From positions 133,152-197,151 of the forward strand of contig JACKFI010000001.1 in assembly GCA_020632555.1 (NCBI GenBank): a DNA stretch of 64,000 nucleotides. Direction: 5' to 3'. The notes beneath the pieces are model-generated. The model was not told the origin of the DNA and did no database searches. It worked only from the letters and a program-made list of their open reading frames with translations. Position numbers and translations under genes: made by a program. This DNA comes from Candidatus Omnitrophota bacterium (lineage in GTDB: Bacteria > Omnitrophota > Gorgyraeia > Zapsychrales > JANLHA01). Below, in pieces: positions 30,013 through 56,927 of this stretch (its first letter is position 1; the number at the start of each line of letters is the position of its first letter).

Positions 30013-30017
30013 ACATG

Positions 30018-35934: not shown

Positions 35935-35952
35935 ATGTGCCAGATTTGTGCC
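35935..35952 (-). promoter_or_regulatory. Repeated 18-bp motif copy 3 (GGCACAAATCTGGCACAT on the minus strand), between rtcR 3' end and the HEPN gene
   Basis: Core identical to copies 1 and 2. The flank also carries a TGGTGCC variant. No obvious downstream minus-strand gene (would be antisense to rtcR). Confidence 0.3.
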
Positions 35953-35976
35953 ATAGCAAAATGCCATCTTTTTGTA

Positions 35977-36384
35977 TCACTTTCCCATCATCTCTCTGAC
36001 CCATTGATAAACCCGGGTAGTCACCTTGACCATTTCATCAGCATCGGCTCGATTAACACTACGGCATTCATACTGGATCACATTCTTTCGGGCAATGATT
36101 TTGCGTAATTGCTTGGCTTTTTCAGCAGCGCCATCAATCGGCAATTTTGAAACCAGCTCACAGACATCCAAGTGATCTTGGGAAATTGACCGAACACCTT
36201 TTTCATTCACACAAATCGCATCCGCCGAAGAAATCGCACATTGCAATGCCAACGTTGCCGCGGCGTTCCAATTCTCAGCATGAAAAGCAATGAGCATTTG
36301 ATCGTAATTGTCCGATGCCTTTTTCAGATATTCACTAGCGGCAGATTTGCTCTCTTCTCTCACCTTCATTTCACGCGCTGTCAC
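35977..36384 (-). CDS. HEPN-domain protein (toxin of a HEPN/MNT pair)
   Basis: 135 aa, all-helical. R-x5-H-like motif (VRSISQDH). Directly downstream (1-nt gap) of the MNT gene. Confidence 0.6.
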   Translation of the reverse strand: MTAREMKVREESKSAASEYLKKASDNYDQMLIAFHAENWNAAATLALQCAISSADAICVNEKGVRSISQDHLDVCELVSKLPIDGAAEKAKQLRKIIARKNVIQYECRSVNRADADEMVKVTTRVYQWVREMMGK

Positions 36385-36385
36385 A

Positions 36386-37015
36386 TCACACCTCCAAAGG
36401 TTCTTTTCCGTATAAAACTGAATAGGATTTCATTAATGTTGATATCGGCGGAAGATTCTTTTTAAGACGTTCACGAAATTCAGCCGCTGACTTTACATAA
36501 AAATCCAAATGAATACCAAAATATGACTTAAACCGATCCGCAATGCTTGAATTAAAAACCTCCGCAACCTGCTTCGTATGGCTTGCCTTATCGACAACAA
36601 CGGCCACATCAACATCGCTTTTTTTATTTGCTGTACCTTGCTGAACACTTCCATAAAGGATCAAAGAAACAATATCCGTCTTGATCCCGCCTTTCTTTAT
36701 CTCCTCCAAGAGCAGATCGCGGATCTCTCCCTTATAATTACTCTCCGCCTCGAACATCGGGCGAATAATTTTTTGAACGATGCGGTCCTCTTCATTCAAA
36801 GAATAGATATGCTGTTTTCCGATGACTTCGACATTAAGAATATTGTGTGCCTGAAGATTCTTTAATGATTCGTGGGTAGCAGGCACAGAAAAACCAGACA
36901 ATTTAGCAATCTCGCGGCCCGTGGCTCTTAATCCTTTACGGATAGTCAGAACACGCAGGATGGCCACCGCTGACTGCGTCCCAACAATTTCACTGATTTG
37001 GAAAGGAGAATCCAT
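36386..37015 (-). CDS. Nucleotidyltransferase (MNT-type antitoxin) with N-terminal winged-helix DNA-binding domain
   Basis: N-terminal wHTH (…GREIAKLSGFSVPATHESLKNLQAHNIL…). C-terminal Pol-beta NTase motif (LYGSVQQGTANKKSDVDVAVVVD). Confidence 0.7.
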   Translation of the reverse strand: MDSPFQISEIVGTQSAVAILRVLTIRKGLRATGREIAKLSGFSVPATHESLKNLQAHNILNVEVIGKQHIYSLNEEDRIVQKIIRPMFEAESNYKGEIRDLLLEEIKKGGIKTDIVSLILYGSVQQGTANKKSDVDVAVVVDKASHTKQVAEVFNSSIADRFKSYFGIHLDFYVKSAAEFRERLKKNLPPISTLMKSYSVLYGKEPLEV

Positions 37016-37022
37016 AAACTTT

Positions 37023-37057
37023 ACCTAACATATGTAAGGTTAACCTAACACGTAAAG
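37023..37057. promoter_or_regulatory. Near-palindrome ACCTAACATATGTAAGGT plus direct repeat TAACCTAACACGTAAAG just upstream of the MNT/HEPN operon
   Basis: 16/18 palindrome centred on CATATG, 8 nt from the MNT start codon. Plausibly the auto-operator of the wHTH-MNT protein. Confidence 0.3.
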
Positions 37058-37149
37058 TATAACATTGTTTCCAGAACTGTCAAATTTATACTGCTCCACG
37101 GTGATATACCGTATTGTGTGTAAATTAACTGTCATCCCCGAAATTTTTT

Positions 37150-38545
37150 ATCGGGGAACCATTTAAAAGTAGTAAAAAAAGGCGTATCTTTCTGTTTGGA
37201 AATGTTTAACCGGGTTGACCCATGTCAGCCCAGAACAGAAAGGATACGCCCATGTACCAAACATTTGATACTTTAAAACATCGCGGAGCCGGGTCAAGGA
37301 TTTCATTAATTATACCCAACCGAAAGATTTTTGGATCGATATTAATATGCATCTTAGAAAACTAACCAAAAGTTTTATTGAAGAAACTCTCGACGAAGAA
37401 ATGACCCAATATCAACAACGAGAAAAACATCAGCGGTTAAAGAAAATGATCGATTACCGAAACGGACATTATCAACGCAACCTCGATACGACCATCGGCC
37501 CTCTTGATAATATTGCCGTTCCGCGTTCACGAAGCGGACTATTTAAACCTACGGTTTTTAAGCGTTACCAAAGACGCCAAGAAGCTGTTAACACCGTCAT
37601 CTGCAATGCCTTCCTGCGCGGCATATCCACCCGTGAAGTCGCTGGCGCTTTAAAACCAATCCTTGACACCAACATCTCCGCTTCCGCCGTCTCACGAATA
37701 ACAAAATCTTTAAATGCCCAAGTTAAAGCATTCCATCAACGTCAACTGCTCGACGAATATCAGTTTTTATTCCTAGACGGTATTGCTATCTCAGTCAAAG
37801 GAGCGCTTAAAGCCAAGAAAATTCTTGTCCTAACTGCTTATGGCATTACGATCTTCGGTAAAAAAGAGCTCATCGCCTTTAGAATCTCTAACAGCGAGTC
37901 AAATCAAGCCTGCGAAGGATTTTTAAATGATCTATTTAAACGCGGCCTGCAAGGCAAAAACCTTAAATTGATTATCACCGACGGGTCCAAAGGCTTTATT
38001 AACGCCGTCGACCTCGTTTACCCTCACGTCAAACATCAGCGCTGCTGGGTTCATAAACTTCGTAATTGCACTAAACATCTTAAGAAATGCGATATTGATG
38101 CATTTAAAAATGATGCCCGCAAGATTTACAATGCCTCGACTCATCGAGATGCTGTCGCGGCTTTTAAGAGTTTACGCCAACATTGGGTCAAAGATTATCC
38201 GCAAGTTGTCAAACTCATCGAACAGGATTTAGATAGTCTTTTGGCTTTTTTAGAAATTCCAATCAAGGAACAATACCGCGAATTTATCCGTCGTCGAATT
38301 CGTACAACCAACATCATCGAGCGTTCATTCCGGGAAATCAGACGCCGCACCAGACCCATGGGATGTTTTGCAAATATTGATAGCGTCAGCAGGATTATTT
38401 ATGCGATATTTAATCGCTTAAACACCAAATGGCAGGAGAAACCTTTAACCCAATTTACACAATTTATTTGACATTACCGCAAATTGAAAGGTGCGGTTAA
38501 AACAAGAAAACCCCGTCTCTCCTCGACGGAAAACAGGGTTTTATA
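37150..38545 (+). mobile_element. IS256-family insertion sequence (boundaries approximate; terminal inverted repeats not resolved)
   Basis: The transposase CDS has ~190 bp of upstream and ~70 bp of downstream non-coding flank. A 16-bp-stem long hairpin (GGCGTATCTTTCTGTT…AACAGAAAGGATACGCC) lies at 37196-37257. Confidence 0.4.
37347..38471 (+). CDS. tnp: IS256-family (Mutator-type) transposase
   Basis: 374 aa. Typical IS256 transposase N-terminus (…IEETLDEEMTQYQQREKHQRLKKMIDYRNGHYQRNLDT…) and DDE core. Confidence 0.85.
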   Translation: MHLRKLTKSFIEETLDEEMTQYQQREKHQRLKKMIDYRNGHYQRNLDTTIGPLDNIAVPRSRSGLFKPTVFKRYQRRQEAVNTVICNAFLRGISTREVAGALKPILDTNISASAVSRITKSLNAQVKAFHQRQLLDEYQFLFLDGIAISVKGALKAKKILVLTAYGITIFGKKELIAFRISNSESNQACEGFLNDLFKRGLQGKNLKLIITDGSKGFINAVDLVYPHVKHQRCWVHKLRNCTKHLKKCDIDAFKNDARKIYNASTHRDAVAAFKSLRQHWVKDYPQVVKLIEQDLDSLLAFLEIPIKEQYREFIRRRIRTTNIIERSFREIRRRTRPMGCFANIDSVSRIIYAIFNRLNTKWQEKPLTQFTQFI

Positions 38546-38548
38546 TTG

Positions 38549-38562
38549 GTTGCGGGGACAGG
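38549..38562 (-). repeat. 14-nt direct copy (TTGCGGGGACAGGA) of the tRNA-Met 3' end, att-like
   Basis: Exact match to 38731-38744 (tRNA acceptor/T-stem 3' strand), ~170 bp downstream of the tRNA 3' end. Confidence 0.45.
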
Positions 38563-38695
38563 ACCTGCCTACCGGCAGGCAAGTTTGAATGGTTTCGCGG
38601 CTTCGCTTACGCTCAACCATTTCCTCGCCTAACGGCTCGGTCACCTGCGCTCGCTTTCGCTCGCTGCACGTCCATTCACCCATCCCACTAATAAA

Positions 38696-38725
38696 TTAAG
38701 AAGGCCCCAATTGGGGCCTTCTTAA
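38696..38725. terminator. Perfect 13-bp-arm palindromic hairpin TTAAGAAGGCCCC-AATT-GGGGCCTTCTTAA immediately 3' of tRNA-Met
   Basis: Read directly from the sequence. GC-rich stem flanked by A/T runs on both sides (bidirectional terminator-like). Confidence 0.55.
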
Positions 38726-38730
38726 TTTAA

Positions 38731-38804
<74 letters not shown>

Positions 38805-39579: not shown

Positions 39580-40854
39580 TTAATATATCTTGCCCCACAA
39601 AGCGCCGGCATAAACTGCTTTTTTGCCAAGCTGTTCTTCAATACGCAAAAGTTCATTATACTTGCAAAGCCGATCGGTGCGCGATAAAGATCCGGTCTTA
39701 ATCTGCCCAACGCCGGTGGCAACAGCCAAATGCGCAATGGTGGTGTCTTCTGTCTCGCCTGAGCGATGAGAAATAATCGATGTATATTTGTTCTTTTTAG
39801 CCAAATTCACGGTATCCAATGTTTCGGACAAACTGCCGATCTGATTGACTTTAACCAAAATCGAATTGGCAACGCCCCTATTAATACCGTCTTTTAAACG
39901 TTTGACATTGGTCACAAACAAATCATCTCCAACCAGCTGAACTTTCGCAGCTAATTTATCAGTCATAACCTTCCAACCGTCCCAATCATTTTCATCCAAA
40001 CCATCTTCGATAGAAACAATCGGATAATTCTTGAGCATGCTGGCATATACCGCGATCATTTCGTCAGCGGTATTAATTTTGCCATTGTAATTGTAACCAC
40101 CTTTTTTATCAAAAAAGGAAGCCGCCGCGCAATCTAACGCGATAGAAATATCTTTGCCTGGTTTATAACCGGCTTTGCTGATCGCGTCGATAATCAAAGA
40201 CAAGGCTTCTTCATTCTTGCCCAAGTTCGGCGCGAAACCACCTTCGTCACCGACGGAGGTAGAAAGTTTTTTGTCATGCAAAATTTTCTTTAAGTTATGA
40301 AAAACTTCGGTCGCCATGCGAATCGCTTCGCTAAACGTTGGTGCGCCGATGGGAGCGATCATAAATTCTTGAATGTCCAGATTATTGTCCGCGTGCAAAC
40401 CGCCGTTTAAAATATTCATCAAAGGCACCGGCAAGATGCTGGCCCGATTGCCACCCAAATAACGATACAGCGGTTCTTCCTTATCTTCTGCGGTCGCCTT
40501 GGCAACAGCCATCGAAACGCCCAAAATCGCATTGGCGCCCAATTTGGATTTGTTTTCAGTGCCGTCTAAATCTAATAAAATTTGATCGATATCTTGGAAG
40601 TCAGCCTTTTGGCCTTTGATTTTTTTAGCAATCAAGGTGTTCACATTGTCAACAGCTTTGGTAACGCCTTTGCCCATCCAACGGCTTTTGTCCCCGTCGC
40701 GCAATTCGATAGCTTCGTATTCTCCCGTCGATGCGCCTGATGGAACCGCTGCGCGTCCGAAAGCGCCGCTGCCCAAAAGAACGTCAACCTCAACGGTTGG
40801 ATTACCACGAGAATCAATGATCTGTCTTGCTTTCACTGCTTTAATTTTTGCCAT
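39580..40854 (-). CDS. eno: Enolase (phosphopyruvate hydratase)
   Basis: 424 aa. N-terminus [25 protein letters not shown] and full enolase signature. Confidence 0.95.
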
Positions 40855-42720: not shown

Positions 42721-43693
42721 CTTTCTTTTTCTTTGTTTGCTCAGCGGACTCATTTGCACGCCTTTGGCTTGTGCACCCCAAAACGTACCCCAAAAAGTTT
42801 CACTGACCTCTGCGCAGGAAAAATTTCTTAAACTCTGCCATGAAGAGCTCAAGTACGAGGTCTCCGTGTTTCCCAAGGGCAAAACGCTGTGGGTTTATGT
42901 TCCGCTGTCTGATAATATCAGCATTCTCAAAGCGGCACCCAAAAACCAAACACCGCCGGCGGATACCATAGAAAGCTGGTCCATCAATTTTCTAAAAAGC
43001 ACGTTTGAAAACAAAACATTTGTGATCAGCTATGACATTACGCCGACTAAGAAATATGATCAACCCCTAACATATAAAAATAGCTATTCCGATGAATATT
43101 CGAAGAAACAAAGAGAAGTCTTAACCGCTTTGACGCGCGCGTATTTTGATGTCGGGCAAAAGAACATCGACAGTTCTTTGACCGTTGGCAATCAAGCCGA
43201 TACGACCAGCGATAAACCCCTAGTCAAAAACATTGCCGAGGGCATTTTGCCGCCAGAGAAAGAAGCCGCGCCTCCCGAATTCTTTGTCACAATCTTTGCC
43301 GACATCAAAAACGGGGTCGCGGTAAAAACCACCAACTATTTTGAAGATATGCGCATGGCTCTCTCAAACCCGCCGGCTATTTCTAACGACGAATATGCCA
43401 AACGTTTTGTTTATGAAATATTGGGAGATGAGAAGATGATTGGCAATACAACCGGTACCAATCTAGAAATGAATGAAATCATTTTGAGCGATTTTTTGGC
43501 CAAACAAATCGAAACCCGCATCAAATACCAGTTCACGCAAAGTAATTTTCCTCCCACGGGACAAGTGCTAGATGAGATTTGGACTATCGTCGGAGAAACC
43601 TGCCGTTTGTATCAATTCAAGGATTTCGAGAAAATCAAACTCATTGACCTGCAGACTCAAAAAGAATCAACTTTCGATAAAAGCCAACTTTAG
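42710..43693 (+). CDS. Hypothetical secreted protein / lipoprotein
   Basis: Signal peptide MKYNFLFLCLLSGLICTPLACAPQ. The start was moved to the internal Met at 42710 to avoid a 74-nt overlap with the FtsH-like gene. Confidence 0.45.
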   Translation: MKYNFLFLCLLSGLICTPLACAPQNVPQKVSLTSAQEKFLKLCHEELKYEVSVFPKGKTLWVYVPLSDNISILKAAPKNQTPPADTIESWSINFLKSTFENKTFVISYDITPTKKYDQPLTYKNSYSDEYSKKQREVLTALTRAYFDVGQKNIDSSLTVGNQADTTSDKPLVKNIAEGILPPEKEAAPPEFFVTIFADIKNGVAVKTTNYFEDMRMALSNPPAISNDEYAKRFVYEILGDEKMIGNTTGTNLEMNEIILSDFLAKQIETRIKYQFTQSNFPPTGQVLDEIWTIVGETCRLYQFKDFEKIKLIDLQTQKESTFDKSQL

Positions 43694-44535
43694 AACTCCA
43701 CGCCCACTTTCATGCCGACGATAATTGAAGTATTCTCGAATTCTTGCTGTGATTTAGCCGCTTGCACGCCGGTGTGGAAAACGGGCTTCACCTCCGAGCT
43801 GTCGATGCTCCAATAATCCACGTAAGGCTCAAAAATATAATTTTTGTCACTCATTTCTTTACGAATTTGGATAGAAATTTTAAAACCATACCCGGAATCT
43901 TGGTCATTATCAACATCACCAAATAAAGGGTCCAAATCACTCAAATAGGTCGTTTGTTTGCCAGACCAAAAGAAATCATATTCTGCCTTGACTCCAGCCG
44001 ACCAACCTTTGGCTAATGGGGTATTGGTTTCAAAACCCAACGGCGTGTACAAATATTCAGAAACTCGTCGATATCCCGCATTAACTTTTTGCAATTGATC
44101 TTTCAAATAACGATAACCAATCCCGGCAAATGGCGTGATCGTCGTGTCTGAAAATATCGAAAAATCATAGCCAGCCAAACCGCGAAATTCACTGATAAAG
44201 TTTTTAACATCCTGAATCTCATAATAACGATCATCATAAAGATAACCGTTAAAATCAACTCTGCCGAAGATAATGCGGCCATCAACTTTGAGCATAACCT
44301 TGGAAAATTGTTCCACCCACGATTCTCCCCGATACGTGTACGAACCCGACAAACCATACAAAAATCCATTTTCTTCCATAGCTGTTTCTTTAAAATCGTA
44401 ATAGCCCGCCTCGGGACTTAAAGTGATGGTATGTGTTTTAGGTTCCAAAGCGTCGACCGCACCAGGAGCCAAAGCACAAACTAAAAATAATACAACAATC
44501 AATATCGCAAACCTTGGCATAATCAACCTCCTCAA
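43690..44535 (-). CDS. Outer-membrane beta-barrel protein (MipA/OmpV-like)
   Basis: Signal peptide (MPRFAILIVVLFLVCALAPGAVDA), Tyr/Gly-rich strands, C-terminal ...VGVEF. Confidence 0.55.
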   Translation of the reverse strand: MRRLIMPRFAILIVVLFLVCALAPGAVDALEPKTHTITLSPEAGYYDFKETAMEENGFLYGLSGSYTYRGESWVEQFSKVMLKVDGRIIFGRVDFNGYLYDDRYYEIQDVKNFISEFRGLAGYDFSIFSDTTITPFAGIGYRYLKDQLQKVNAGYRRVSEYLYTPLGFETNTPLAKGWSAGVKAEYDFFWSGKQTTYLSDLDPLFGDVDNDQDSGYGFKISIQIRKEMSDKNYIFEPYVDYWSIDSSEVKPVFHTGVQAAKSQQEFENTSIIVGMKVGVEF

Positions 44536-45974: not shown

Positions 45975-47996
45975 TTAAGGACGATGTTGAAGTTTTTTCT
46001 CGAGGGTTTGCAATTGCAGTTCAATTTTTTCAAAGGTCTGATCTTGTAAGCGCATTTGATTGTTCTGCTCTTTGAGCGCGCCGGTTAGAACCGCGGTAAT
46101 GCCCATCGGATCAACACTTCTGCGACCTTCTTCAGCGACGAACTCCGGAACATCTTCGGCAATAAACCCGACGTGATGTTCCTCATGATTGACTTTATAA
46201 TTATAAGTCACAGGCTGCAATTCTTTGACCACTTCTAAAGCTTGGCGGGTATCTAATGGATAGATATGCTCTTTATACTCGCGGCTGGATAAAGTCATCC
46301 ACGTTCCAACATCGTCCAAATGCGCATTATTACCAAAATGCAAAGGGTAGGCCGGATCAGGTCGTCCAACACCAATTCGACCATTATTTTTAACCATAAA
46401 AATATCTCCAGCGGTTGCGGAGTTCTGTGAAGTCACAGCAAAAAAATCGTCCCCATTATTAATTTTTATATCTAAAATCGCACTGGGCGCAGTGTTACGA
46501 ATACCGAATTTGGGATTATTGGTACTGGGCGCAATAATAAACGCATCCGAGGCTGAAATCGAAACAGCTGATATGGAATACCCCCACACAAAAGATCGAT
46601 TTGCGCTATTAATCAAATTCATATAACGTCCTCCTGCCCATGAATAATCGCCCAAAACCGTATTATTTCGACCATTGCTAATGACTGAATAATTTCCTGA
46701 AACATCATTATTCACACCACCAACAACTATTGAAGAACGTCCAGCCCTATTATTAGCCCCTCCCCAAATAACCGCATAATCCCCAGATGTCACATTTCCT
46801 GTTCCACCCATAATCGCCGACCAAGAGCCATTAACTGTATTGCTCCTGCCTCCATCAATCACTGAATACAAACCATTCGCGGTATTGGTCAATCCTCCCG
46901 CAATAAATGAATAACTCGCCAACGCATTATTTGATTGCCCCCCGCCGACCACAGCATAAGGACCAGCTGAATTTTGACAACCGCCACTGACCACAGAATA
47001 AATACCGGGATCGTGATGCAATGTGCCGCCGGAAATAGTAAAATAATCGGCCGCAACAGTTTTGGTCGGATCCGTTAAACAATTTGGAAAAACCCATTGC
47101 GCATTATTACTACTGCCGCCGGTGATCGTCGCACCGACTCCTGCCGCAACATTACAAGAACCACTAAAAACAACATTATAATCATTTCGTGTTTGGCTTG
47201 ATTCTCCACCGACAACAGAAGCTCTCCCCTGCACATCACTTCGCTCACCCCAATTGACAGCATACTGACTGAAAACATCTGTTTTTAAACCGCCCAAATT
47301 AGCTGAATAATCTCCGGAAGCTTTTGAATACCGTCCAAATGCAACTGCAGCTAACCCACTGGCCTTAATATTGTCTTTACCTAAAGCAATTGAATAATCG
47401 CCAATATTGCCATCATTCCAAGCATCGGAAAAATCTTCTTCCCCCCAAAAATGCGTTAAATGTCCAACACGAAAAGCCGCTTTACGAGGATACCAAATCA
47501 TTTGCACCGCCCCTTCAAAACTAGACTCAGCAATAGCAGGCAAGTCAGGCAAAAGTTGGCCACTGCCCAATTGCCCCATCGCTAAAATACCGCCATCATT
47601 TTCTAAAGTCAGCTTGAATTCCGGAACAGTCGTGCCAATACCCACAAAAATATTGGGATTGGTGACTATCGCAGTTGGAAAAACATCATTGCCCGACTGG
47701 GTCCAAGAGCTTTCCAACAATGTCCATTGTCCATTTCCACTGCCATCATCAAAACAATAATGCAATTGATCTGTCCCCTGCTTAACAGACAATGTCCCAA
47801 GCGCACAAGGGGTGGATAATACTTGCGGCAATAAAGTCACTCGATCATAAGCGCCTTGCGGTGCCGGATAATATGTCGTTAATGTAAGACTCTCAGCCAA
47901 CGCAGACAAAGAACTCAATACAATCAAAGCGACGCTGATCGCCCCAATTTGAATTGAGCGTAAAAAACCATCGTCTCTGTGCTGAGCCTTTTGCAT
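45975..47996 (-). CDS. Secreted phage-tail-fibre-like protein, paralog 1 (N-terminal YYPAP module, ASGxYS/GG beta-repeats, C-terminal S74-type intramolecular chaperone domain)
   Basis: Signal peptide. N-terminal TYYPAPQGAYDRVTLLPQ…YC…VGIGT…KLTL…WYPRKAAFR. Over 15 tandem (A)SGxYSxxxGGxxN repeats. C-terminal SSREYKEHIYPLD…VTYNYK…HVGFIAEDVPEFV…MGITAVL plus a coiled-coil tail. Confidence 0.7.
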   Translation of the reverse strand: MQKAQHRDDGFLRSIQIGAISVALIVLSSLSALAESLTLTTYYPAPQGAYDRVTLLPQVLSTPCALGTLSVKQGTDQLHYCFDDGSGNGQWTLLESSWTQSGNDVFPTAIVTNPNIFVGIGTTVPEFKLTLENDGGILAMGQLGSGQLLPDLPAIAESSFEGAVQMIWYPRKAAFRVGHLTHFWGEEDFSDAWNDGNIGDYSIALGKDNIKASGLAAVAFGRYSKASGDYSANLGGLKTDVFSQYAVNWGERSDVQGRASVVGGESSQTRNDYNVVFSGSCNVAAGVGATITGGSSNNAQWVFPNCLTDPTKTVAADYFTISGGTLHHDPGIYSVVSGGCQNSAGPYAVVGGGQSNNALASYSFIAGGLTNTANGLYSVIDGGRSNTVNGSWSAIMGGTGNVTSGDYAVIWGGANNRAGRSSIVVGGVNNDVSGNYSVISNGRNNTVLGDYSWAGGRYMNLINSANRSFVWGYSISAVSISASDAFIIAPSTNNPKFGIRNTAPSAILDIKINNGDDFFAVTSQNSATAGDIFMVKNNGRIGVGRPDPAYPLHFGNNAHLDDVGTWMTLSSREYKEHIYPLDTRQALEVVKELQPVTYNYKVNHEEHHVGFIAEDVPEFVAEEGRRSVDPMGITAVLTGALKEQNNQMRLQDQTFEKIELQLQTLEKKLQHRP

Positions 47997-48011
47997 ATTT
48001 TTATCCCTGTC

Positions 48012-50006
48012 TTATTTCTCTAACCTTGTCCGCAATACTTTAATTCTTTCTTCAATCAGCTGAATCTTGTGTTCCCGTTGTTCAATTTCAGATTGTTGAT
48101 TTTGAACAACCTTGGTTAAAACGGCAACAATATCCATTGTGCTCAAAGTTTTGCGGTCTTTAACCGCAACTAAACTCGGAACATCTTCGGCAATAAATCC
48201 AATATTCGTATGATCAGGATCATTTTTATATTCAAATGTAACCGGATTTAATTGCTCAAAAGCTTGCTGGGCATCTGCTCCTGTCAGCGGAATAATATTT
48301 TCTTTAAGCTTGCGGCTAGATCCATTTTCCCAGGATCCTCCAGAACTCACATAAGCCCCATTGCCAAACTCCATTGCATAAGTAGGATTTGTTGGCATTA
48401 TTTTTTGGCTGCCAATATAACCATTTCTTTTCACAATAAAAACATCCCCAGAAGTTATTTTTCCCAAAGCCAAGAAATTATCAGCAGTTCCGTTGGCATT
48501 AACTTCTAAAACACCAACCGGATTAGTATCCCTGATCCCAACTCTGGGATTCCAAACAACTCCGCCAATCGTTCCCGGCGCAATAATAAATGCATCCGGC
48601 ACAACAATAGAAACCGCTGTATCAGAATATCCCCACGCAAAAGTTCGCTGCGCGGTACTTGTCAAATTCATAAAACGTCCCCCAGCCCAAGAATAATCGC
48701 CATCTACTATATTGTCCGTCCCACCCATGATCGTAGAATACCCGCCGTAAGCTCTGTTTCGCTCACCCCCCGCGATCACAGAATAATTATAGCTAGCATC
48801 ATTTTGCCACCCACCACCTATAATCTGGCCGAAACCTCCGCGAATCACATTCGTGCGTCCACTAGAAATAAACGAATACCTATTACCAGTTAAAATGGAA
48901 TTGCTGTCCCCACCGGAAATTCGCACATATTCACCAGCTGGACTAAACACAGAAACGTATTCACCGGTTTTATTCGCCAAGCCACCGCCAATGCTTGAAT
49001 AAGGTCCCTCAACAATATTGCCCTCACCCCCCAAAACAATAGAATAATCAGATCTGACTTTATTGTCCTTACCCCCACCAATCAGCGAATACCCCGTCGG
49101 AACACCAAAATCAGTAAAATCAATTAAATTATTAAAACCACCATTGATGTTTGAATATGGAATTGTGACACGATTTTGTGCCCCGCCGGCAACAACACTA
49201 TAAATCGCAGTGGCCTGATTATCTAAACCCCCAAGAATCGCAGAAAAATCTCCGGAAACCACATTGTTTTCTCCACCCCAAAGTGCCGCATATCGACCAC
49301 TGGCCATATTGTCCTTGCCACCGCCAACCGCTGAAAAATCCGCACTGGCCGTGTTCCTAAATCCACTGCCAACCACAGAATATAATGCACTGGCAATATT
49401 TCCATCGCCGCCGCCGATAGCTGAATAATGTCCACTGGCCCTTGTATTCTTTCCAAAAGCCGTGGAATAATTGCCGATATTCCCATTGTCCCATTGAGCC
49501 CCATCAACATAACCGGCGCGAATCGCGGCTTTACGCGGATACCAAATAAACCGGCTGCCCGCTCCTAAATTCGGCAAGGTCGCGCCACTGCCAAATGTCC
49601 CCTTAGCCATAATCCCGCCATCTTTTATTAAAGTCAGTTTTGAATCCGGCGTGTTGGTCCCAATCCCAACACGCAATAAAGGATTGCTCAAAGTATCTTT
49701 CAAATAAATATCATCATTCGTTTGCATCCAAACATCACTAAGCGCTTCCCACGCACCATTACCGCTGCCATCATTGTGACAATACTGAAGACTCCCCAAA
49801 GAATTCACATACAAAGATCCAATCGGACAAGCCGCAGTCAAGTCTGCGCGTGGCAGTAAACGAAAAGTGTCATATTCCCCTACCAATGAAGGATAATAAA
49901 TATCCATTTTCATTTCTGGGCTCGCCTGCGCAACGGGGACAAACACAAATCCCGTACAAATGAGGAGAAGAATTAGGAAAAGTTTTTTTGAATTATTTAT
50001 CATCAT
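48012..50006 (-). CDS. Secreted phage-tail-fibre-like protein, paralog 2
   Basis: Same architecture: DIYYPSLVGEYDTFRLLPR N-terminal module, beta-repeats, C-terminal SSRKLKENIIPL…NIGFIAEDVPSLV…MDIVAVL. 15-bp gap to paralog 1. Confidence 0.7.
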   Translation of the reverse strand: MMINNSKKLFLILLLICTGFVFVPVAQASPEMKMDIYYPSLVGEYDTFRLLPRADLTAACPIGSLYVNSLGSLQYCHNDGSGNGAWEALSDVWMQTNDDIYLKDTLSNPLLRVGIGTNTPDSKLTLIKDGGIMAKGTFGSGATLPNLGAGSRFIWYPRKAAIRAGYVDGAQWDNGNIGNYSTAFGKNTRASGHYSAIGGGDGNIASALYSVVGSGFRNTASADFSAVGGGKDNMASGRYAALWGGENNVVSGDFSAILGGLDNQATAIYSVVAGGAQNRVTIPYSNINGGFNNLIDFTDFGVPTGYSLIGGGKDNKVRSDYSIVLGGEGNIVEGPYSSIGGGLANKTGEYVSVFSPAGEYVRISGGDSNSILTGNRYSFISSGRTNVIRGGFGQIIGGGWQNDASYNYSVIAGGERNRAYGGYSTIMGGTDNIVDGDYSWAGGRFMNLTSTAQRTFAWGYSDTAVSIVVPDAFIIAPGTIGGVVWNPRVGIRDTNPVGVLEVNANGTADNFLALGKITSGDVFIVKRNGYIGSQKIMPTNPTYAMEFGNGAYVSSGGSWENGSSRKLKENIIPLTGADAQQAFEQLNPVTFEYKNDPDHTNIGFIAEDVPSLVAVKDRKTLSTMDIVAVLTKVVQNQQSEIEQREHKIQLIEERIKVLRTRLEK

Positions 50007-50008
50007 AT

Positions 50009-51943
50009 TTACTCAAAGTGCCTGTTTAATTGCTCTAGCTCATTTAATAAATCTTCACTTTTTTGCTTCTGTTGCTCAATTTTCTCTTGTTGATAAGCAA
50101 CAACCTTGGTTAAAACCGCAGCAATATCCATTGGGGCTAATCCTTGGCGTTGTTTTTGAACAACCAAAGCAGGAACATCTTCGGCAATAAAACCAACATA
50201 TTCTTCATCTTTTTGTAATTTATAATTAAACCGTACCGGATTTAAACCACGCAATGTTTCTAAAGCTTGATCCAGGTCCAAAGCCGTAATATTTTCTTTA
50301 TATTCACGACTTGATGAAGGCATGAATTTACCACTGGCATCAACATAGGCACCGTTACCAAAATCCATAATGTATTGCGGATTACTCTTATTAACCCCAA
50401 TGCAACCATTGCAACTGCCGCCTTTCTTGATGGTAAAAATATCACCCACAACAGAACTAGAGTTGCTGGTAAAGTTTAAATAATCATCCGCAGAATTATT
50501 GCCATTAATTTCCAACCCAGCGGCAGGAGTTATATCGCGAATACCCATTCTGCCAGAATAAATGATAAAAGCATTGGCTGTCGAAATATCTGCAGGCGCT
50601 GCAGAATATCCCCACAAAAAAGTATTATTAGCCCCAGTGGTCAATCTCATATTTCGACCAGCAACAAATGAATATGGGCCAACAATAGAATTATCAGCCC
50701 CACCGGCAATCATCGAACAATCAGAAGCCGCCTCAACCCTATTGAGCTTACCCCCCATAACCGTTGCATAAGGACTCAAAACGCCATTGTCTTCTCCTGC
50801 GCCAATCACAGAATAATCCTGACTCACAGTATTTCTATGCCCACCACCGACGACCGAATAAAGACCCTGAACAAGATTATCACTGCCGCCGGCAATAACC
50901 GAATACTGTCCAGAAATAACATTTGACTTCCCACCGGAATTAACAGAATATGAAGCGCTGGACGAATTTAAATGCCCCCCCGCAATAACAGTCCGATCCG
51001 TTACATTGACAAAGGTGTTGGCCCGACCGCCGCTAATGACCCCATAACTGCTAACCTGACTTGGCGAAAAAGAATTATCCCCACCACCTGAAATTATTTG
51101 ATAATCATAATAAGTCTTATTATTGTTCCCACCCGCAATAATTCTAAAACGAGAATAATTATCCGACCCGCGCGGGTGAGAATTATCTCTCCCTCCGCCG
51201 ATATCAGACCACACGTCCCCCGCACTATTATTAAAACCGGCTAGTCCTCCCTCCCAACAATCATCACGGCAAACATTGTTTTCTCCACCAAGAATAATTC
51301 CGCCCTTAGCTGCATTCGATTTACCTCCTAAAATCATTCCCCATCTGGCATCGTTATTCTCGCCACCTAAAACAAACATCCCTCTGCTGCCATATCCCAT
51401 AACTACACTGCCTGGATCAATATTCCCAACATCCCATTCATTCCCGGCAGCATACCCGGAACGAAAAGCTTTTTTCGATGGAATCCACATCAAGCGCGTA
51501 CCGGCTCCCGCAGTAACTAAGGCTGTCCCACTGGCCCAACTGGGCGTAAACCATCGCGATAAAATTCCACCATCACCGGCGAGCGTTAACTTAAACTGCG
51601 GCATCATTGTTCCAATCCCAACTTTTTTAGCTGCTGGATTCGTCGTATCGGCAAGATGGAGATTGTCTCCTGTCAATACCCACGTACCAGAGACAAGCAC
51701 GTATTTAGAAAACGGAGTGTCCTTAACACAATAATAAAGTCTGCCTAGGTCTGTCGCATTGGCATACAATGTACCAACAGGACAATTTGTATTTGGAGTA
51801 ATAGCTGGCTGAGGATTTAATCTGAGTTTGCTGTAATTTCCCGTTGGAGCAGGATAGTAGGACGTCATTTCCAAACCGCTGCAAGCTGCACAGGCGATAA
51901 ACGCGAACGAAAAAAACAAATATGCTGAAAATATTCTTCGCAT
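50009..51943 (-). CDS. Secreted phage-tail-fibre-like protein, paralog 3
   Basis: Same architecture: TSYYPAPTGNYSKLRLNPQ module, repeats, C-terminal SSREYKENITALD…YVGFIAEDVPALV…MDIAAVL. 2-bp gap to paralog 2 (operon). Confidence 0.7.
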   Translation of the reverse strand: MRRIFSAYLFFSFAFIACAACSGLEMTSYYPAPTGNYSKLRLNPQPAITPNTNCPVGTLYANATDLGRLYYCVKDTPFSKYVLVSGTWVLTGDNLHLADTTNPAAKKVGIGTMMPQFKLTLAGDGGILSRWFTPSWASGTALVTAGAGTRLMWIPSKKAFRSGYAAGNEWDVGNIDPGSVVMGYGSRGMFVLGGENNDARWGMILGGKSNAAKGGIILGGENNVCRDDCWEGGLAGFNNSAGDVWSDIGGGRDNSHPRGSDNYSRFRIIAGGNNNKTYYDYQIISGGGDNSFSPSQVSSYGVISGGRANTFVNVTDRTVIAGGHLNSSSASYSVNSGGKSNVISGQYSVIAGGSDNLVQGLYSVVGGGHRNTVSQDYSVIGAGEDNGVLSPYATVMGGKLNRVEAASDCSMIAGGADNSIVGPYSFVAGRNMRLTTGANNTFLWGYSAAPADISTANAFIIYSGRMGIRDITPAAGLEINGNNSADDYLNFTSNSSSVVGDIFTIKKGGSCNGCIGVNKSNPQYIMDFGNGAYVDASGKFMPSSSREYKENITALDLDQALETLRGLNPVRFNYKLQKDEEYVGFIAEDVPALVVQKQRQGLAPMDIAAVLTKVVAYQQEKIEQQKQKSEDLLNELEQLNRHFE

Positions 51944-52033
51944 AAGCGGTTTTGAAAAAGACCAACTGATATAAAAAAAACACTTTTTTATACTATAGGA
52001 GAAGTATACCTGAAAAAATGACTAGTCACAATG

Positions 52034-53320: not shown

Positions 53321-55126
53321 TTAAAGCTTCTCAATACGCCGGGCCATATCGGCCAAATGCATAGTCGCCAGACGATCCAATTCATCAGGACCGGACTTGA
53401 GCAACAAAACACGCTCATAAAACGCGATCGCTTTTTCCCGTTGCCCCAGCATTTGATACGTTGAAGCGAGGTTAAATAAAGCTTCTTTCAAATTTCCATC
53501 TAATGAAATTGCTTTTTCGTAATACTCAATGGCCCGCCGGGGATCAGATAATTTCGAATACAAAATCCCCAAACTATGGTAACCGCGCGCATTATCGGGT
53601 TTTTCTCTCATCAAACGTTCATAATGTGAAACCAAAAACAATTCCGTAGACTTGATATTATCGTCAAGCAAGTTCTTCAAATCGCCCGGATCGGTAATCT
53701 TATCATATTCGCGCAAACCTTCCCAAAACTTACCTTGATCACATAAGGATTTACCCAAACCAATGCGCGCCCGGATATTAAAAGGTTCAACATCCAAAAC
53801 TTTTCGAAAATTATGTTCAGCCAGATCAAACCGATTGCGCTTAGCATAAGATAAAGCCAAAGAATTGCGAATACGCGTATTGGTCGGATTAATGGACAAA
53901 GTGCGCTCGAACATTGCGATTTCATTGCTGGAATAAATGTTGTATTGAATCGTTAAAAGAATCAAAAATAAAGAAAACCCTATCACACCAGAGCGAATCA
54001 TGAAAGGAGAAATCAATTTACGGCGCGCACAGGCTTTTTTGTAATGCTCAAAGAGCACCATGGCTAAAACAAAAATACCAATGCTGGGCACATATAAAAA
54101 ATGCTCCGCTGTTGAAATATAGCCCGGCTGGACTCCCACTGTTGTAATAATCTGAGAAACAGGTAAAAGTTCAATAAAAAACCAGCTCACACAAAAAGCT
54201 TGCAACCCTGTGATTTTCTCGCGCTTAATCCAAGCCATCGCCATTAAGGCCAAGAAAAATAGCACAGTCAGAATCACCTGAGTGTCCATGAAACTAATAA
54301 AAATCGGCTGAGAACGATCAAAATAAAGATCAACCGGAAAAATGAAAAGGCGCAAATCGATGATCACACTTTTTAAAAATGTCAAAAAACCCAAAACCAT
54401 TTCACTCGCCGATCGCCACGGAAAAGTTCTCGTAATGCCTAAAATATGGCGTATCCCCAAATAAACTCCGGCGACAGCAGCGTAAGGAACAAGGCCAACG
54501 AAAAGTTTTTTAAAATGAAAGCTTTGTTTTTCCTTAATAAAATAAGAATAACTTAAAAACACCAATGGAAGAATACCCGCGGATTCTTTGCACAGCAGCG
54601 CCAAAGCAAACGCGATCAGTGAAAAATACGAATAATATTTCCGGCGGTCGGAATAAATAAAAAAATAAAATGACGCCAGCCCATAAAAAGCGCACAAAAG
54701 AATAGAACGCCCGGGAATATTAGACACCGCCTCCCATTGAATCGGATGCAAAGCAAACAAAAATGCCGCTCCCAAGGCCATGGCTCGTCGATCTGTCAAA
54801 GCAAAAACAATCGCAAAAACCCAGAAAGCGTTGAGAATATGAATAAGAATATTGTCTACATAATACGGAACGGGATCGAGTTTAAAAAAATGGTATTCCT
54901 TCATAAAACTCAGCGTAACCAATGGCCGATAATAAGCCTCCCCACTAAAAAAAGCGCTGGTCATCACTTTGGGAATATTACGAAAACTGCGAACATCTTC
55001 ATTGCGGACAATTGAATAATCATCATCCAGCGTCTTAAAAGCGCCATTAATGCTAAACGAATAGACAAAACATGTCATAAACGCCAACAAAATCAACCCA
55101 ACAAGTGTTTTACGTTTTTCAATCAT
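53321..55126 (-). CDS. TMTC-like membrane glycosyltransferase (GT-C/PMT_2-like polytopic N-domain + C-terminal TPR repeats), paralog A
   Basis: 601 aa. ~10 N-terminal TMs with a DUF1736-like region. C-terminal 5-6 TPR units (…ALSYAKRNRFDLAEHNFRKVLDVEP…). Confidence 0.65.
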   Translation of the reverse strand: MIEKRKTLVGLILLAFMTCFVYSFSINGAFKTLDDDYSIVRNEDVRSFRNIPKVMTSAFFSGEAYYRPLVTLSFMKEYHFFKLDPVPYYVDNILIHILNAFWVFAIVFALTDRRAMALGAAFLFALHPIQWEAVSNIPGRSILLCAFYGLASFYFFIYSDRRKYYSYFSLIAFALALLCKESAGILPLVFLSYSYFIKEKQSFHFKKLFVGLVPYAAVAGVYLGIRHILGITRTFPWRSASEMVLGFLTFLKSVIIDLRLFIFPVDLYFDRSQPIFISFMDTQVILTVLFFLALMAMAWIKREKITGLQAFCVSWFFIELLPVSQIITTVGVQPGYISTAEHFLYVPSIGIFVLAMVLFEHYKKACARRKLISPFMIRSGVIGFSLFLILLTIQYNIYSSNEIAMFERTLSINPTNTRIRNSLALSYAKRNRFDLAEHNFRKVLDVEPFNIRARIGLGKSLCDQGKFWEGLREYDKITDPGDLKNLLDDNIKSTELFLVSHYERLMREKPDNARGYHSLGILYSKLSDPRRAIEYYEKAISLDGNLKEALFNLASTYQMLGQREKAIAFYERVLLLKSGPDELDRLATMHLADMARRIEKL

Positions 55127-56927
55127 TTTTTTTCTCTGCCTGGTTAAGGTAATTTTCTACCGCTTTTAAATTCATATCCCCATCAAACTTTTCTTGAGCT
55201 TTTGCCAATACCGTCCGCGCTTGCGGCAAATCACCGGCCTCAATGTTAATATGTATCACAAAAACATAAGCCAGTACCGATTGAGAATCAACTGCCATGG
55301 CCTGCAAAGCACAATCTTTTGCCGACACATAATCTTTTTTAATCAAATAATTCCTCGAAAGCTCCAAATACAATCCCGAAAAACCGGGAGCCAACTCAAT
55401 GGCTTTCTTCAAATAACCAATCGCGGCGTCGGGAGTAGCAGCCGCTTTACTTAGAAGATGATAAGTCATAAATTTTTCTTTGTCACTGGAAATAAACGGA
55501 TTATTCATCGCGACTTTAAGATGTTGTGTAAGATATTTAACCGCCTGCGGCGAATGACCTGCCAAATAACTATCCAAGCCTAAAATCCAATACGGGCGAG
55601 AACTATCCGGATACCGGCGAATCATTTCGCGGCAAGCCACAAAATTATTTCTAAAGAAATCATTATTGGCAATGGTTAAAATAATCAAAAACCCTGTCCA
55701 AACTCCTGGCAATATCAATCTCATGTTCAACGTAATATGTCGTCGAGTAAACCACTGCGCAAGATGGTCTATACCAATCGCAAATAACAAAAAAAATCCA
55801 ATCGACGGCAAATACAAGAAACGAAATGCTAAAGGATTAAGCAAAGGAAAGATCCCAGAAGCCGGGAAATAATTGACAAAAAACCACACAAACCCAAAAG
55901 TAATAATTTTATCGCGTCGAAAAAAATTAACGGCTAAAATTATGGACAATAAGCTAACAACCAACGGCACCATCAATTCCCAAATCGGCATTGGAAAAAT
56001 TGGCGGGGCATACAAGGGAGGAAGAACAGAAACTTTAAACGGCAAAACCAGCGCCACGCAGTACTGTAAGAAAAGTTTAAGCATCAAGACAATTTGCGCT
56101 AAACCTTTTAAAGCATAAGGCGAAGGCTGTAAATAAAATACATTAGGAATTAAAATGAAGTACACACATAAATAAAAGATCGTGATTCCAGCCAAAACCG
56201 CGTAAAGCCCCTTCTTTTGACCAAGAATCTGTCGACCCTTTTGCGCTGAAAGAAAGAACCAGTCGACAATAAAAATAATAAATGGAAAAGTTACTGCTGT
56301 TTCTTTTGAAAACAAAGCCAAAAAATATGACACTCCGACAAGACCAAACCAGAGGCCTTTTCTTTTAGCCTCACTAAAGCGCGCATAAGCTAAAACCGCG
56401 CACAAATAAAACATCGTCATCAAAATATCCGAACGATACCCGCTGGCATTGACAACTTCCGACTGAATTGGATGGACTGCGAAAAAACTTGCCGCCCAAA
56501 AAGCTATTTTTTTATTGCCGGAAATCCGCAGGATAAAATAAAAAACCAAAATGCAGGTCAAAAAATGAAGAAATATATTACTAAAATGATGCCCCGTCGG
56601 ATTGTTCTTCCATAAAGCGTAATCTATAAAAAAGGTCGCAGCGCTAACCGGACGATAAGAAACGCACCCGGAAAAAGATTGAGTCTTTTGTGAAGCATCA
56701 TAAGTCGACGGATTCATGACCAAATCTTGTGAGAAAATCTTTGGGAAATTGGTCAGACTTTTATAAAATTCATTGCCGCTAAAAAGAGCCTTGTCGTCGC
56801 CAACAAAGTCATTTTGCAAACAATTGTGAAAAGCGGCTGCAACAAAAAGCGCTAAAAGAAAAATAATTAATCGATTGGTGAAGGGAATTTTTGTGAAGGA
56901 AAAATTTTTCAAGGCACGAAGAATCAA
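55119..56927 (-). CDS. TMTC-like membrane glycosyltransferase (GT-C + TPR), paralog B
   Basis: 602 aa. Same architecture as paralog A. Overlaps it by 8 nt (operon). Confidence 0.65.
   Translation of the reverse strand: MILRALKNFSFTKIPFTNRLIIFLLALFVAAAFHNCLQNDFVGDDKALFSGNEFYKSLTNFPKIFSQDLVMNPSTYDASQKTQSFSGCVSYRPVSAATFFIDYALWKNNPTGHHFSNIFLHFLTCILVFYFILRISGNKKIAFWAASFFAVHPIQSEVVNASGYRSDILMTMFYLCAVLAYARFSEAKRKGLWFGLVGVSYFLALFSKETAVTFPFIIFIVDWFFLSAQKGRQILGQKKGLYAVLAGITIFYLCVYFILIPNVFYLQPSPYALKGLAQIVLMLKLFLQYCVALVLPFKVSVLPPLYAPPIFPMPIWELMVPLVVSLLSIILAVNFFRRDKIITFGFVWFFVNYFPASGIFPLLNPLAFRFLYLPSIGFFLLFAIGIDHLAQWFTRRHITLNMRLILPGVWTGFLIILTIANNDFFRNNFVACREMIRRYPDSSRPYWILGLDSYLAGHSPQAVKYLTQHLKVAMNNPFISSDKEKFMTYHLLSKAAATPDAAIGYLKKAIELAPGFSGLYLELSRNYLIKKDYVSAKDCALQAMAVDSQSVLAYVFVIHINIEAGDLPQARTVLAKAQEKFDGDMNLKAVENYLNQAEKKND

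Follow-up and report, generated by a model that had tools for sequence, protein, structure and literature searches.

A conserved three-gene set in Candidatus Omnitrophota predicted to encode the chains of a secreted, S74-processed trimeric fiber, possibly a heterotrimer

Phage tailspikes, endosialidases, MyRF, Bdellovibrio mosaic adhesive trimeric (MAT) fibers, and trimeric autotransporter (TAA) heads are textbook homotrimers, and all folds that make up the proteins described here, TAA heads and the S74 chaperone among them, are obligate trimers in known proteins. To our knowledge, all characterized S74 fibers, MAT fibers, and TAA heads are homotrimers, and no counter-example was found in the literature searched. 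The closest described system is the S74 subgroup of the MAT fibers of Bdellovibrio bacteriovorus, including Bd3182 (Caulton et al. 2024, PMC10769870). In MAT proteins, the signal peptide is followed directly by a conserved beta-rich N-terminal domain of ~130 aa, and a capping-loop motif, V-G-G/N-pi-x-x-P-x-x-x-L, flanks the tip, with the family described as homotrimers encoded by scattered genes and with no mention of an operon or heterotrimer (PMC10769870). The bacteria of the phylum Omnitrophota are uncultured, ultra-small, and probably predators or parasites; until now, accounts of how they attach have been limited to pili and giant ORFs (PMC10066038).

We identified 3 adjacent genes, A, B, and C, in a 64-kb window (the whole stretch of DNA that was analyzed) from the chromosome of a Candidatus Omnitrophota MAG; the window also encodes an enolase with 100% identity to one from an Omnitrophica MAG. 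A first-pass annotation of this DNA had described 3 tandem paralogs of 644-673 aa separated by gaps of 15 and 2 bp, and all of them are present on the minus strand, with 37-38% identity between paralogs over their full length.

50009-51943, minus strand: gene A, 644 aa, first of the triplet, position clade A (NCBI MCB9756963.1)
48012-50006, minus strand: gene B, 664 aa, second of the triplet, clade B, starting 2 nt past the stop codon of A
45975-47996, minus strand: gene C, 673 aa, third of the triplet, clade C, starting 15 nt past the stop codon of B (NCBI MCB9756961.1)
52003-52031, minus strand: candidate sigma-70-like promoter, TTGTGA-17-TATACT, a consensus match of presumed function

The gene B model at NCBI is 31 aa shorter, and the promoter candidate, found by a consensus scan, sits in the 90-bp gap between an MFS gene and gene A. 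The triplet is flanked by housekeeping genes, and the 64-kb window showed no phage or eCIS genes, in line with the earlier description of the locus as chromosomal with no phage structural genes nearby. The descriptive part of the first-pass annotation was thus confirmed, far beyond chance.

The N-terminal part of each chain comprises a candidate signal peptide and a small domain, named YYP here, with the following layout:

49923-50006, minus strand: predicted signal peptide of B, residues 1-28 (...VAQA before SP), from the sequence and an AF2 helix at residues 6-22, cleavage site putative
51878-51943, minus strand: predicted signal peptide of A, about residues 1-22, equivalent of that of B, cleavage site putative
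47895-47996, minus strand: predicted signal peptide of C, residues 1-34, equivalent of that of B, cleavage site putative
49671-49922, minus strand: YYP subdomain of B, residues 29-112, with YYPSLxGEY, 2 conserved Cys, and a small beta-sheet
51620-51874, minus strand: YYP subdomain of A, equivalent of B 29-112
47643-47894, minus strand: YYP subdomain of C, equivalent of B 29-112

Signal peptides, already proposed in the first reading, were judged by eye in A, B, and C from a basic n-region, a hydrophobic h-region, AxA-type sites, the AF2 helix at 6-22 in the model of B, and conservation in orthologs; the proteins are probably secreted. After the signal peptide, all 3 chains have a conserved beta-rich domain, and their shared N-terminal motifs include YYP(A/S)(P/L)xGxY, 2 invariant Cys, VGIGT..P..KLTL..DGGI, and W(Y/I)P(R/S)K(A/K)A(F/I)R. 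Although every motif of the conserved N-terminal module proposed earlier was found, this region is not a single module, since it is a composite of the ~75-aa YYP domain and a widespread capping-loop/head-start cassette. The YYP family comprises 1378 representative clusters and was seen only in Omnitrophota-type MAGs within the scans made here, with no relatives found in Pfam, PDB, or viral structures and no occurrence in the viral contigs scanned. YYP is a previously uncharacterized N-terminal domain family.

The central part of each chain is a beta-roll head followed by a neck and tip:

48642-49670, minus strand: B residues 113-455, made up of capping loop 1 (VGIGTNTPDSKLTL), a head-start cassette reading GSG..LP..GAGSRFIWYPRKAAIRAGY, and a left-handed beta-roll of the UspA1/YadA type with ~16 rungs
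50621-51619, minus strand: capping loop 1, cassette, and beta-roll of A, equivalent of B 113-455
46593-47642, minus strand: capping loop 1, cassette, and beta-roll of C, equivalent of B 113-455
48321-48641, minus strand: B residues 456-562, neck (FAWGYS..AFIIAPG) and tip with capping loops 2 and 3 (VGIRDTNPVGVLEV; IGSQKIMPTNPTYAMEF)
50315-50620, minus strand: neck and tip of A, equivalent of B 456-562
46290-46592, minus strand: neck and tip of C, equivalent of B 456-562

The 14-15-residue repeats match the UspA1 head (PDB 3pr7) by sequence (E 2.4e-15), and the AF2 model of B (md37ad24e908a; pLDDT 79.7 and above 90 in region 113-455) matches the same structure by Foldseek (E 3e-7, TMt 0.69). 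YadA_head was over the Pfam cutoff in 2 relatives (L018 and L045). Capping-loop motif copies were identified in each chain (VGIGTNTPDSKL, VGIRDTNPVGVL, and a third degenerate copy), and the Bd3182 tip (8ojn) gave a weak profile match at its capping loops. Among orthologs, conservation is lowest in the head, in keeping with the variable region noted at first; its repeats are not of a phage-fiber type, however, but form the head beta-roll of UspA1/YadA trimeric autotransporters. The tip (B 456-562) is predicted to form the distal end of the fiber once cleaved.

The C-terminal part of each chain is an S74 domain:

48015-48320, minus strand: S74 intramolecular chaperone of B, residues 563-664, with predicted nucleophile Ser563, Lys568, a predicted scissile bond between Gly562 and Ser563, and C-terminal coiled-coil helix 623-663
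50012-50314, minus strand: S74 chaperone of A, Ser544/Lys549, equivalent of B 563-664
45978-46289, minus strand: S74 chaperone of C, Ser570/Lys575, equivalent of B 563-664

Peptidase_S74 (PF13884) scored 38.4-43.2 bits in all 3 proteins against a gathering cutoff of 22, with the match beginning exactly on the SSR serine in each, and the motifs SSR(E/K)(Y/L)KE, GFIAEDVP, and M(D/G)I.AVLT are shared. The Ser-x4-Lys dyad is intact and aligned to the nucleophile position of MyRF (7dc3) and T5 pb1 (8hqz), and across 36 family members the only changes at its two positions are 1 Ser-to-Ala, 1 Ser-to-Thr, and 1 Ser-to-Cys. The AF2 monomer model, in which residues 623-663 of B form the C-terminal coiled-coil helix, matches the MyRF ICA domain (7dc3) with a Foldseek probability of 1.00 and TMt of ~0.5. 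The profile score, the intact dyad, and the ICA fold of the model uphold the S74 chaperone recognized in the first-pass annotation, and self-cleavage would be expected.

Triplication of these genes had been taken to suggest receptor-binding diversification. This was not supported in that form, as the triplication is an ancient, ordered, and conserved A-B-C unit across genomes, which argues for obligate co-function and against local diversification; this conserved triplet is the new finding here. The 6 context loci (L001, L002, and L004-L007) have 3 or 6 genes each, ordered A-B-C, with intra-triplet gaps or overlaps of -4 to +4 nt (2 and 15 nt in the window) and 159-334 nt between triplets, and the A-B-C order is kept in all of L008-L016. 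The position clades had bootstrap values of 100% (A), 97.5% (B), and 100% (C), with orthologs 52-59% identical compared with 38-41% for paralogs. Arrays of the form ABCABC indicate duplication by whole triplet, and complete YYP-gene arrays had 3 genes in 12 loci, 6 in 3, 4 in 2, 2 in 1, and 1 in 4. Further, separate triplets, each monophyletic by locus (93-100%), are present in 6 other, more divergent lineages of Omnitrophota. Shared lineage-specific indels, and not independent triplication, could account for part of this by-locus grouping. The members of a triplet also match in architecture: S74 is missing from all 3 members in L018 and likewise in L028, and it is present in all 3 in L045, starting at residues 484, 484, and 482. 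Domain lengths in the family are nearly equal across the A, B, and C chains (head 292/299/298 aa), and clade-invariant asymmetries occur in the trimerizing tip and chaperone helix, with 1 core position being Thr/Ser in A, Ile in B, and Leu in C.

Our best reading, with a probability of about 0.5, is that A, B, and C are the chains of an A:B:C heterotrimer, an adhesin fiber that is secreted and then processed by S74. The ordered sets of 3 in related genomes suggest one mixed three-chain fiber, a form undescribed for such proteins, and it is the conserved A-B-C order together with the three-gene sets in many lineages that leads us to favor 1:1:1 co-assembly over 3 homotrimers. A, B, and C would form one translationally coupled operon for the 3 chains of a surface fiber, either an adhesin or a spike. 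Sec would export each chain, and the C-terminal S74 domains would trimerize and template the folding of the tip and the 3 UspA1-like beta-roll heads. Each chain would then cleave itself between X and Ser-Ser-Arg through the Ser/Lys(+5) dyad and shed the ~100-aa chaperone, after which the YYP domain would hold the mature fiber (~515-530 aa per chain) at the cell, with head and tip displayed for binding another cell or surface. The identity of the domains, the intact dyad, the chromosomal setting, and the conserved and recurring triplets are observed, and export, cleavage, surface anchoring, adhesion, and heterotrimer formation are predicted. The wider proposal is that Omnitrophota repeatedly evolved obligate A:B:C heterotrimers from a homotrimeric S74 fiber, with the chains expressed from a translationally coupled three-gene operon and carrying a YYP anchor; this would be the first heterotrimer among phage-type S74/TAA-head fibers, and it is plausible but tentative.

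The main rival to the heterotrimer is 3 co-expressed homotrimers, in which one operon would encode 3 separate S74-processed adhesins with differing binding surfaces and a shared anchor, derived from an ancient split; this is the diversification idea of the first-pass annotation with an older origin, and we consider it possible but less likely. All solved relatives are homotrimeric, and Omnitrophota also have singleton relatives with this architecture (L134, L139, L020, L022, and L024), so homotrimerization is possible in the family. Separate homotrimers would also fit the head being the most variable domain among orthologs, the lack of positive covariation among A, B, and C head lengths across triplets (n = 5), which can be as much as 35 aa apart in one triplet, and the lack of consistent charge complementarity among the chaperone helices. 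However, separate homotrimers leave unexplained the concentration of array sizes on 3 and 6 and the scarcity of pairs relative to triplets, the monophyletic sets of exactly 3 in separate lineages, the joint gain or lack of S74 with cleavage sites at the same residue, and duplication always by whole triplet. It is improbable that the 3 chains tile the ultra-small cell surface as an envelope coat or S-layer-like array: the proteins appear co-expressed and secreted, and the triplets lie in housekeeping neighborhoods and are widely conserved in the phylum, but the TAA head, capping loops, and S74-released tip are the architecture of elongated adhesins or spikes, no lattice-forming domain was detected in the chains, and the number of these genes at a locus ranges from 0 to 6. 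Least probable of all are fibers of a tailocin or eCIS particle, or a prophage remnant, whose N-terminal domain docks on a baseplate encoded elsewhere; for although PHROG tail-fiber families match the C-terminal half, the head-start cassette is present in 11 viral contigs, and the NCBI name of the proteins is 'tail fiber domain-containing protein', a phage or prophage tail fiber is argued against by the predicted signal peptides of A, B, C, and their orthologs (phage and eCIS fibers assemble in the cytoplasm) and by the absence of any capsid, tail, baseplate, or sheath gene in the window or beside the arrays in 7 annotated contexts (the window and 6 other loci), which are differing housekeeping neighborhoods, with YYP having no viral contig or viral structural match.

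If the A:B:C heterotrimer is true, each fiber would have 3 different binding faces, and the system would reveal how chain choice and register can be set by a self-cleaving chaperone. It would also provide a clear example from nature of paralogs that became tied to one hetero-oligomer, apparently on several independent occasions. If the genes instead encode 3 homotrimers, they would represent a new, well-conserved MAT-like adhesin subfamily with a new N-terminal domain. The predicted fibers are strong candidates for host- or prey-recognition organelles of Omnitrophota.

Among known systems, the comparison with the fibers of predatory bacteria made at the outset was apt, because Bdellovibrio MAT fibers share the capping-loop motif and S74. 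Like MAT fibers, A, B, and C are encoded on the chromosome outside any prophage and belong to a lineage that is predatory or depends on hosts. Their layout is also alike, with a Sec signal peptide (predicted in A, B, and C), a conserved N-terminal domain that presumably anchors the protein at the cell surface, a rod (here presumably trimeric), capping loops with V-G-G/N-pi-x-x-P-x-x-x-L, and a C-terminal S74 whose self-cleavage is predicted for A, B, and C. In contrast, YYP has no detectable similarity to the N-terminus of the sole Pseudobdellovibrionaceae MAT-like protein compared (L043), a single-chain beta-roll head of UspA1/YadA type forms the rod in place of a long intertwined beta-helix, the chains have ~650 aa compared with ~1000 aa, the catalytic motif is S-S-R-x-x-K and not S-D-x-x-x-K, and conserved ordered triplets take the place of a homotrimeric fiber from a single gene. 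The Ser-Lys(+5) chaperone, with a Pfam match starting at the nucleophile, the same fold, and a C-terminal coiled coil, is shared with phage S74/ICA proteins (K1F endosialidase, the T5 L-shaped tail fiber pb1, and phi29 gp12) and eukaryotic MyRF, whose known examples are homotrimers; unlike the phage proteins, A, B, and C are not virion parts, have signal peptides, and carry a differing N-terminal adaptor. The 14-15-residue GG..N repeats and left-handed parallel beta-roll are those of TAA heads (Moraxella UspA1, Yersinia YadA, Fusobacterium CbpF, and Acinetobacter AtaA). Nevertheless, A, B, and C are not TAAs (type Vc), because no YadA-type C-terminal beta-barrel anchor was hit in them, their C-terminus being S74 and a coiled coil; attachment polarity is predicted to be reversed, with an N-terminal anchor and a C-terminal free tip, and folding would be aided by S74 where TAAs use the type Vc barrel. 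C1q A/B/C and the heterotrimeric collagens offer a functional analogy only, with unrelated folds and lineage: in these, 3 paralogous chains from adjacent genes build a 1:1:1 trimeric fiber by C-terminal nucleation, as A, B, and C may do in Omnitrophota.

The 3 fibre-protein genes, with the MFS transporter and enolase genes of the window, are placed as follows:

39580-40854: enolase gene
45975-47996, minus strand: gene C, 673 aa
48012-50006, minus strand: gene B, 664 aa
50009-51943, minus strand: gene A, 644 aa
52034-53317, minus strand: MFS gene, on the upstream side of the fibre operon

The proteins share 37-38% pairwise identity in full-length alignment, with intergenic gaps of 2 nt (A-B) and 15 nt (B-C), and every motif quoted in the first-pass annotation, which had described 3 tandem secreted paralogs with self-cleaving chaperone C-termini, is present. 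The chaperone domain, Peptidase_S74 (PF13884), was identified in all 3 proteins at 38-43 bits against a Pfam gathering score of 22 bits, each match beginning exactly at the conserved SSR serine, and the C-terminal halves match PHROG tail-fibre families. The NCBI records of A, B, and C (MCB9756963, MCB9756962, and MCB9756961) are all titled "tail fiber domain-containing protein." In MCB9756962.1 (633 aa), the start of B lies 31 codons late and the signal peptide is lost; we prefer the longer start because it fits the 2-nt gap after A and the orthologs. Two plus-strand ORFs inside the fibre genes (47407-47760 and 51276-51734) were judged by eye to be probably not genes but artefacts that the repeats produce on the antisense strand.

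The order MFS, A, B, C, purN was also found in an independent SRA-run assembly. The remaining gene content of the window includes glgB, treS-mak, glgE, a TetR regulator, oxidoreductases, HMG-CoA reductase, RtcA/RtcB/RtcR, an IS256-type transposase, 3 tRNAs, an FtsH-like protease, and 2 TPR/PMT_2 membrane proteins. This 64 kb is ordinary chromosome, in which no genes for a capsid, tail, baseplate, sheath, or secretion system were found; the locus is therefore not a prophage, in agreement with the first-pass annotation, and assignment of the proteins as prophage fibres was rejected. Long DNA repeats and inverted repeats were searched for in the A-B-C array and none were found, giving no sign of recent gene conversion or of shufflon/invertible switching. 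GC skew is negative in all 2-kb bins (1-64000) and the minus strand holds nearly all genes, so the entire window lies on one replichore.

The domains of a chain, in B numbering, are as follows:

B 1-28: signal peptide with basic n-region, hydrophobic helix, and VAQA↓S, judged from sequence, as in all orthologs
B 29-112: YYP subdomain, with YYP(A/S)(P/L)xGxY 6-8 residues from the mature N-terminus
B 113-185: capping loop VGIGTNTPDSKLTL and "head-start" cassette GSG..LP..GAGSRFIWYPRKAAIRAGY
B 186-455: left-handed beta-roll of about 16 rungs
B 456-562: neck and tip with 2 more capping loops
B 563-664: S74 chaperone

After the YYP motif come 2 almost invariant cysteines and a beta-sheet that has 5 strands in the structure model (pLDDT about 84); the YYP segment proper is of low confidence in the monomer. 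The beta-roll matches the head of Moraxella UspA1 (3pr7) both in sequence (E 2.4e-15) and in fold (Foldseek E 3e-7, TMt 0.69), with further fold matches to the heads of Fusobacterium CbpF and Acinetobacter AtaA. When aligned with MyRF (7dc3) and T5 pb1 (8hqz), SSR(E/K)(Y/L)K has its first Ser at the nucleophile position and its Lys at +5; the S74 domain matches the fold of the MyRF intramolecular chaperone domain with a probability of 1.0, and the long C-terminal helix (B 623-663) carries conserved Gln core layers. The chain thus joins the head of a trimeric autotransporter to a self-cleaving chaperone of phage type, in a chimera without the barrel anchor of trimeric autotransporter adhesins.

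A single conserved N-terminal module had been described for the 3 proteins; the YYP domain and its cysteines are indeed conserved, but the module is composite, with the YYP domain joined to a widespread capping-loop/head-start cassette. Among the GTDB species genomes scanned, MAGs of Omnitrophota type, some carrying the label "uncultured Planctomycetales," were the sole source of the module in full (residues ~7-190), whereas residues ~90-190 were also found in Bacteroidota, Patescibacteria, Pseudobdellovibrionaceae, Gammaproteobacteria, Ignavibacteria, and 1 DPANN archaeon. The cassette was further identified in 11 viral contigs, and a MAT-like protein of Pseudobdellovibrionaceae (L043, 907 aa) shares it internally at 110 bits, with a different N-terminal domain. 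A homologue search with the module returned short fragments only and is no guide to distribution. We rejected homology of the YYP domain to a Bacteroidota-type N-terminus ("PRMT..QR..I..P..GLLVY"; hhalign probability 0.9%), which is probably the PF26696 annotated on distant matches.

The lineages with the cassette include host-dependent ones (CPR, DPANN, Bdellovibrio-like, and Omnitrophota) along with Bacteroidota. The DPANN protein (L052, 8304-11546; 1081 aa), from a Candidatus Aenigmatarchaeota MAG, has 57% identity over ~120 aa in the cassette and a marginal YYP match (E 9e-4). A few giant proteins, P0145 (1614 aa), P0148, P0160, and P0186, have 7-22 tandem matches to YYP profile positions ~20-62 (the C..G.LY....L.YC hairpin), which suggests that part of the YYP domain can serve as a repeat unit. 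In the 708-aa clade C ortholog of L007 (12022-14148), and in no other ortholog, a 54-aa cysteine-rich insert containing CNPDPRCQVCVPPKNGACLDVMPPNWCYC separates the YYP subdomain from capping loop 1.

Among 6 related loci, we identified arrays of exactly 3 genes in L001, L006, and L007 and of 6 in L002, L004, and L005, with spacings of -4 to +4 nt inside triplets and 159-334 nt between them, in at least 3 distinct chromosomal neighbourhoods. A neighbour-joining tree resolved 3 clades corresponding exactly to positions 1, 2, and 3, that is, A, B, and C (bootstrap 100, 97.5, and 100%), with identities of 52-59% between orthologs and 38-41% between paralogs. The A-B-C order is kept in 8 more GTDB loci wherever contig extent shows it (L008-L012 and L014-L016; L013 was left out, being on the same contig as L001). 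The six-gene arrays read ABCABC and each half has its own orthologs in other genomes; duplication or acquisition has therefore proceeded by whole triplet. Across complete arrays in all fetched loci, scored with the YYP-domain HMM, 12 loci have 3 genes, 3 have 6, 2 have 4 (3 genes plus 1 extra), 1 has 2, and 4 have a single gene. Gene B of the L008 triplet (2892-5058) is split by a frameshift, which may mark a pseudogene or stem from misassembly.

The more divergent Omnitrophota triplets L017, L018, L019, L025, L028, and L045 each cluster by locus (bootstrap 93-100%), as does L081 at only 45%; thus, either triplets arose several times or their 3 chains co-evolve. S74 is missing from all 3 proteins of both L018 and L028, and is present in 3 of 3 in L045, where it begins at residue 484, 484, and 482 although the proteins are about 38% identical in the alignment columns they share. 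Relatives of these genes outside Omnitrophota stand alone, and often they are giant ORFs. Metagenome loci, gathered by a hand-made DNA pattern, added 2 triplets (L103, L116) and 2 clear singletons (L134, L139), their short flanks leaving many array sizes not scorable. A conserved 209-aa ORF, consisting only of a signal peptide and a YYP domain, follows one divergent triplet lineage (L019, 10161-10787; L114, 3898-4524; L121, 10101-10727).

In the proteins characterised so far, each component fold is, to our knowledge, obligately trimeric. Given this, the ordered and translationally coupled threes, and the recurrence of 3 with pairs rare, the simplest reading, at a probability of about 0.5, makes A, B, and C the 3 chains of one heterotrimeric fibre. 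The S74 domains would nucleate its assembly and set the register, then cut themselves off. Asymmetries that hold throughout each clade fall precisely in the trimerising regions, the tip and the chaperone, and are compatible with a heterotrimer: a 12-16-aa insert preceding capping loop 2 is absent from clade A, some indels are particular to clade B, and at one core position the C-terminal helix has Thr/Ser in A, Ile in B, and Leu in C. Head lengths differ by up to 35 aa, with no positive correlation between A, B, and C across triplets (n = 4-5 complete sets), and no charge complementarity was found between their chaperone helices. The singleton relatives indicate that homotrimers are viable in the family, and it is a real, if somewhat doubtful, possibility that A, B, and C form 3 co-expressed homotrimers. 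Particle-associated and coat roles, even taken together, are very unlikely. We found no published heterotrimeric S74, tail-fibre, or trimeric autotransporter assembly in the literature, and the Omnitrophota survey (PMC10066038) makes no mention of these fibre proteins.

The first-pass annotation is correct in its description and in reading these as secreted, chromosomally encoded S74 proteins. It had also proposed a variable repeat region and diversification by triplication. The former agrees with ortholog identities, which are lowest in the beta-roll head (44-54%) and higher in the tip (59-66%), YYP domain (54-62%), and head-start cassette (59-72%). The latter gives way to a conserved three-chain unit of ordered A-B-C sets duplicated as whole triplets; diversification is slow and located on the head surface, not in the triplication itself.

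Several other genes of the window deserve description. Immediately upstream of the fibre operon, and like it on the minus strand (53321-56927), are 2 tandem ~600-aa membrane proteins with a PMT_2-like (GT-C glycosyltransferase) N-terminal region and C-terminal TPR repeats, an architecture resembling eukaryotic TMTC O-mannosyltransferases; they may glycosylate secreted proteins. In L001, L002, and L007, the triplets likewise have a TPR protein (781 aa) two genes away. A 281-aa signal-peptide protein 1.4 kb downstream of C (43690-44535, minus), without a Pfam match and not kept beside triplets elsewhere, looks like a small outer-membrane beta-barrel from its alternating pattern and aromatic C-terminus (...KVGVEF). 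Omnitrophota are noted for large adhesin-like ORFs, and a 1224-aa ORF (59377-63051, minus) matches Pfam families only faintly and at scattered positions (HCBP_related, FG-GAP_2, and others). A mobile/defence-type cluster (25557-38804) comprises a Fic/DOC protein, an AbiEii toxin, a DUF6933-ST7 protein, RtcA-RtcB with the sigma-54 activator RtcR, and an IS256-family (Transposase_mut) transposase adjoining tRNA-Met. The gene for HMG-CoA reductase, a mevalonate-pathway enzyme (21946-23214, minus), is flanked by chalcone-isomerase-like, DUF1295/steroid-reductase-like, and lipocalin genes, a lipid/isoprenoid set unusual for a bacterium.

The fibre proteins belong to a known class, the bacterial S74-terminated trimeric fibres; membership of the trimeric autotransporter adhesins was rejected, as there is no barrel. 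Their nearest known system, judged apart from the N-terminal domain, is the mosaic adhesive trimeric (MAT) fibres of Bdellovibrio. The tip capping loops of B fit the motif V-G-G/N-pi-x-x-P-x-x-x-L set out for MAT fibres (PMC10769870), a paper that makes no mention of operons or heterotrimers, and the B tip matches the Bd3182 tip (8ojn) weakly. New within this known class are the YYP domain and a triplet that is ordered and recurs.
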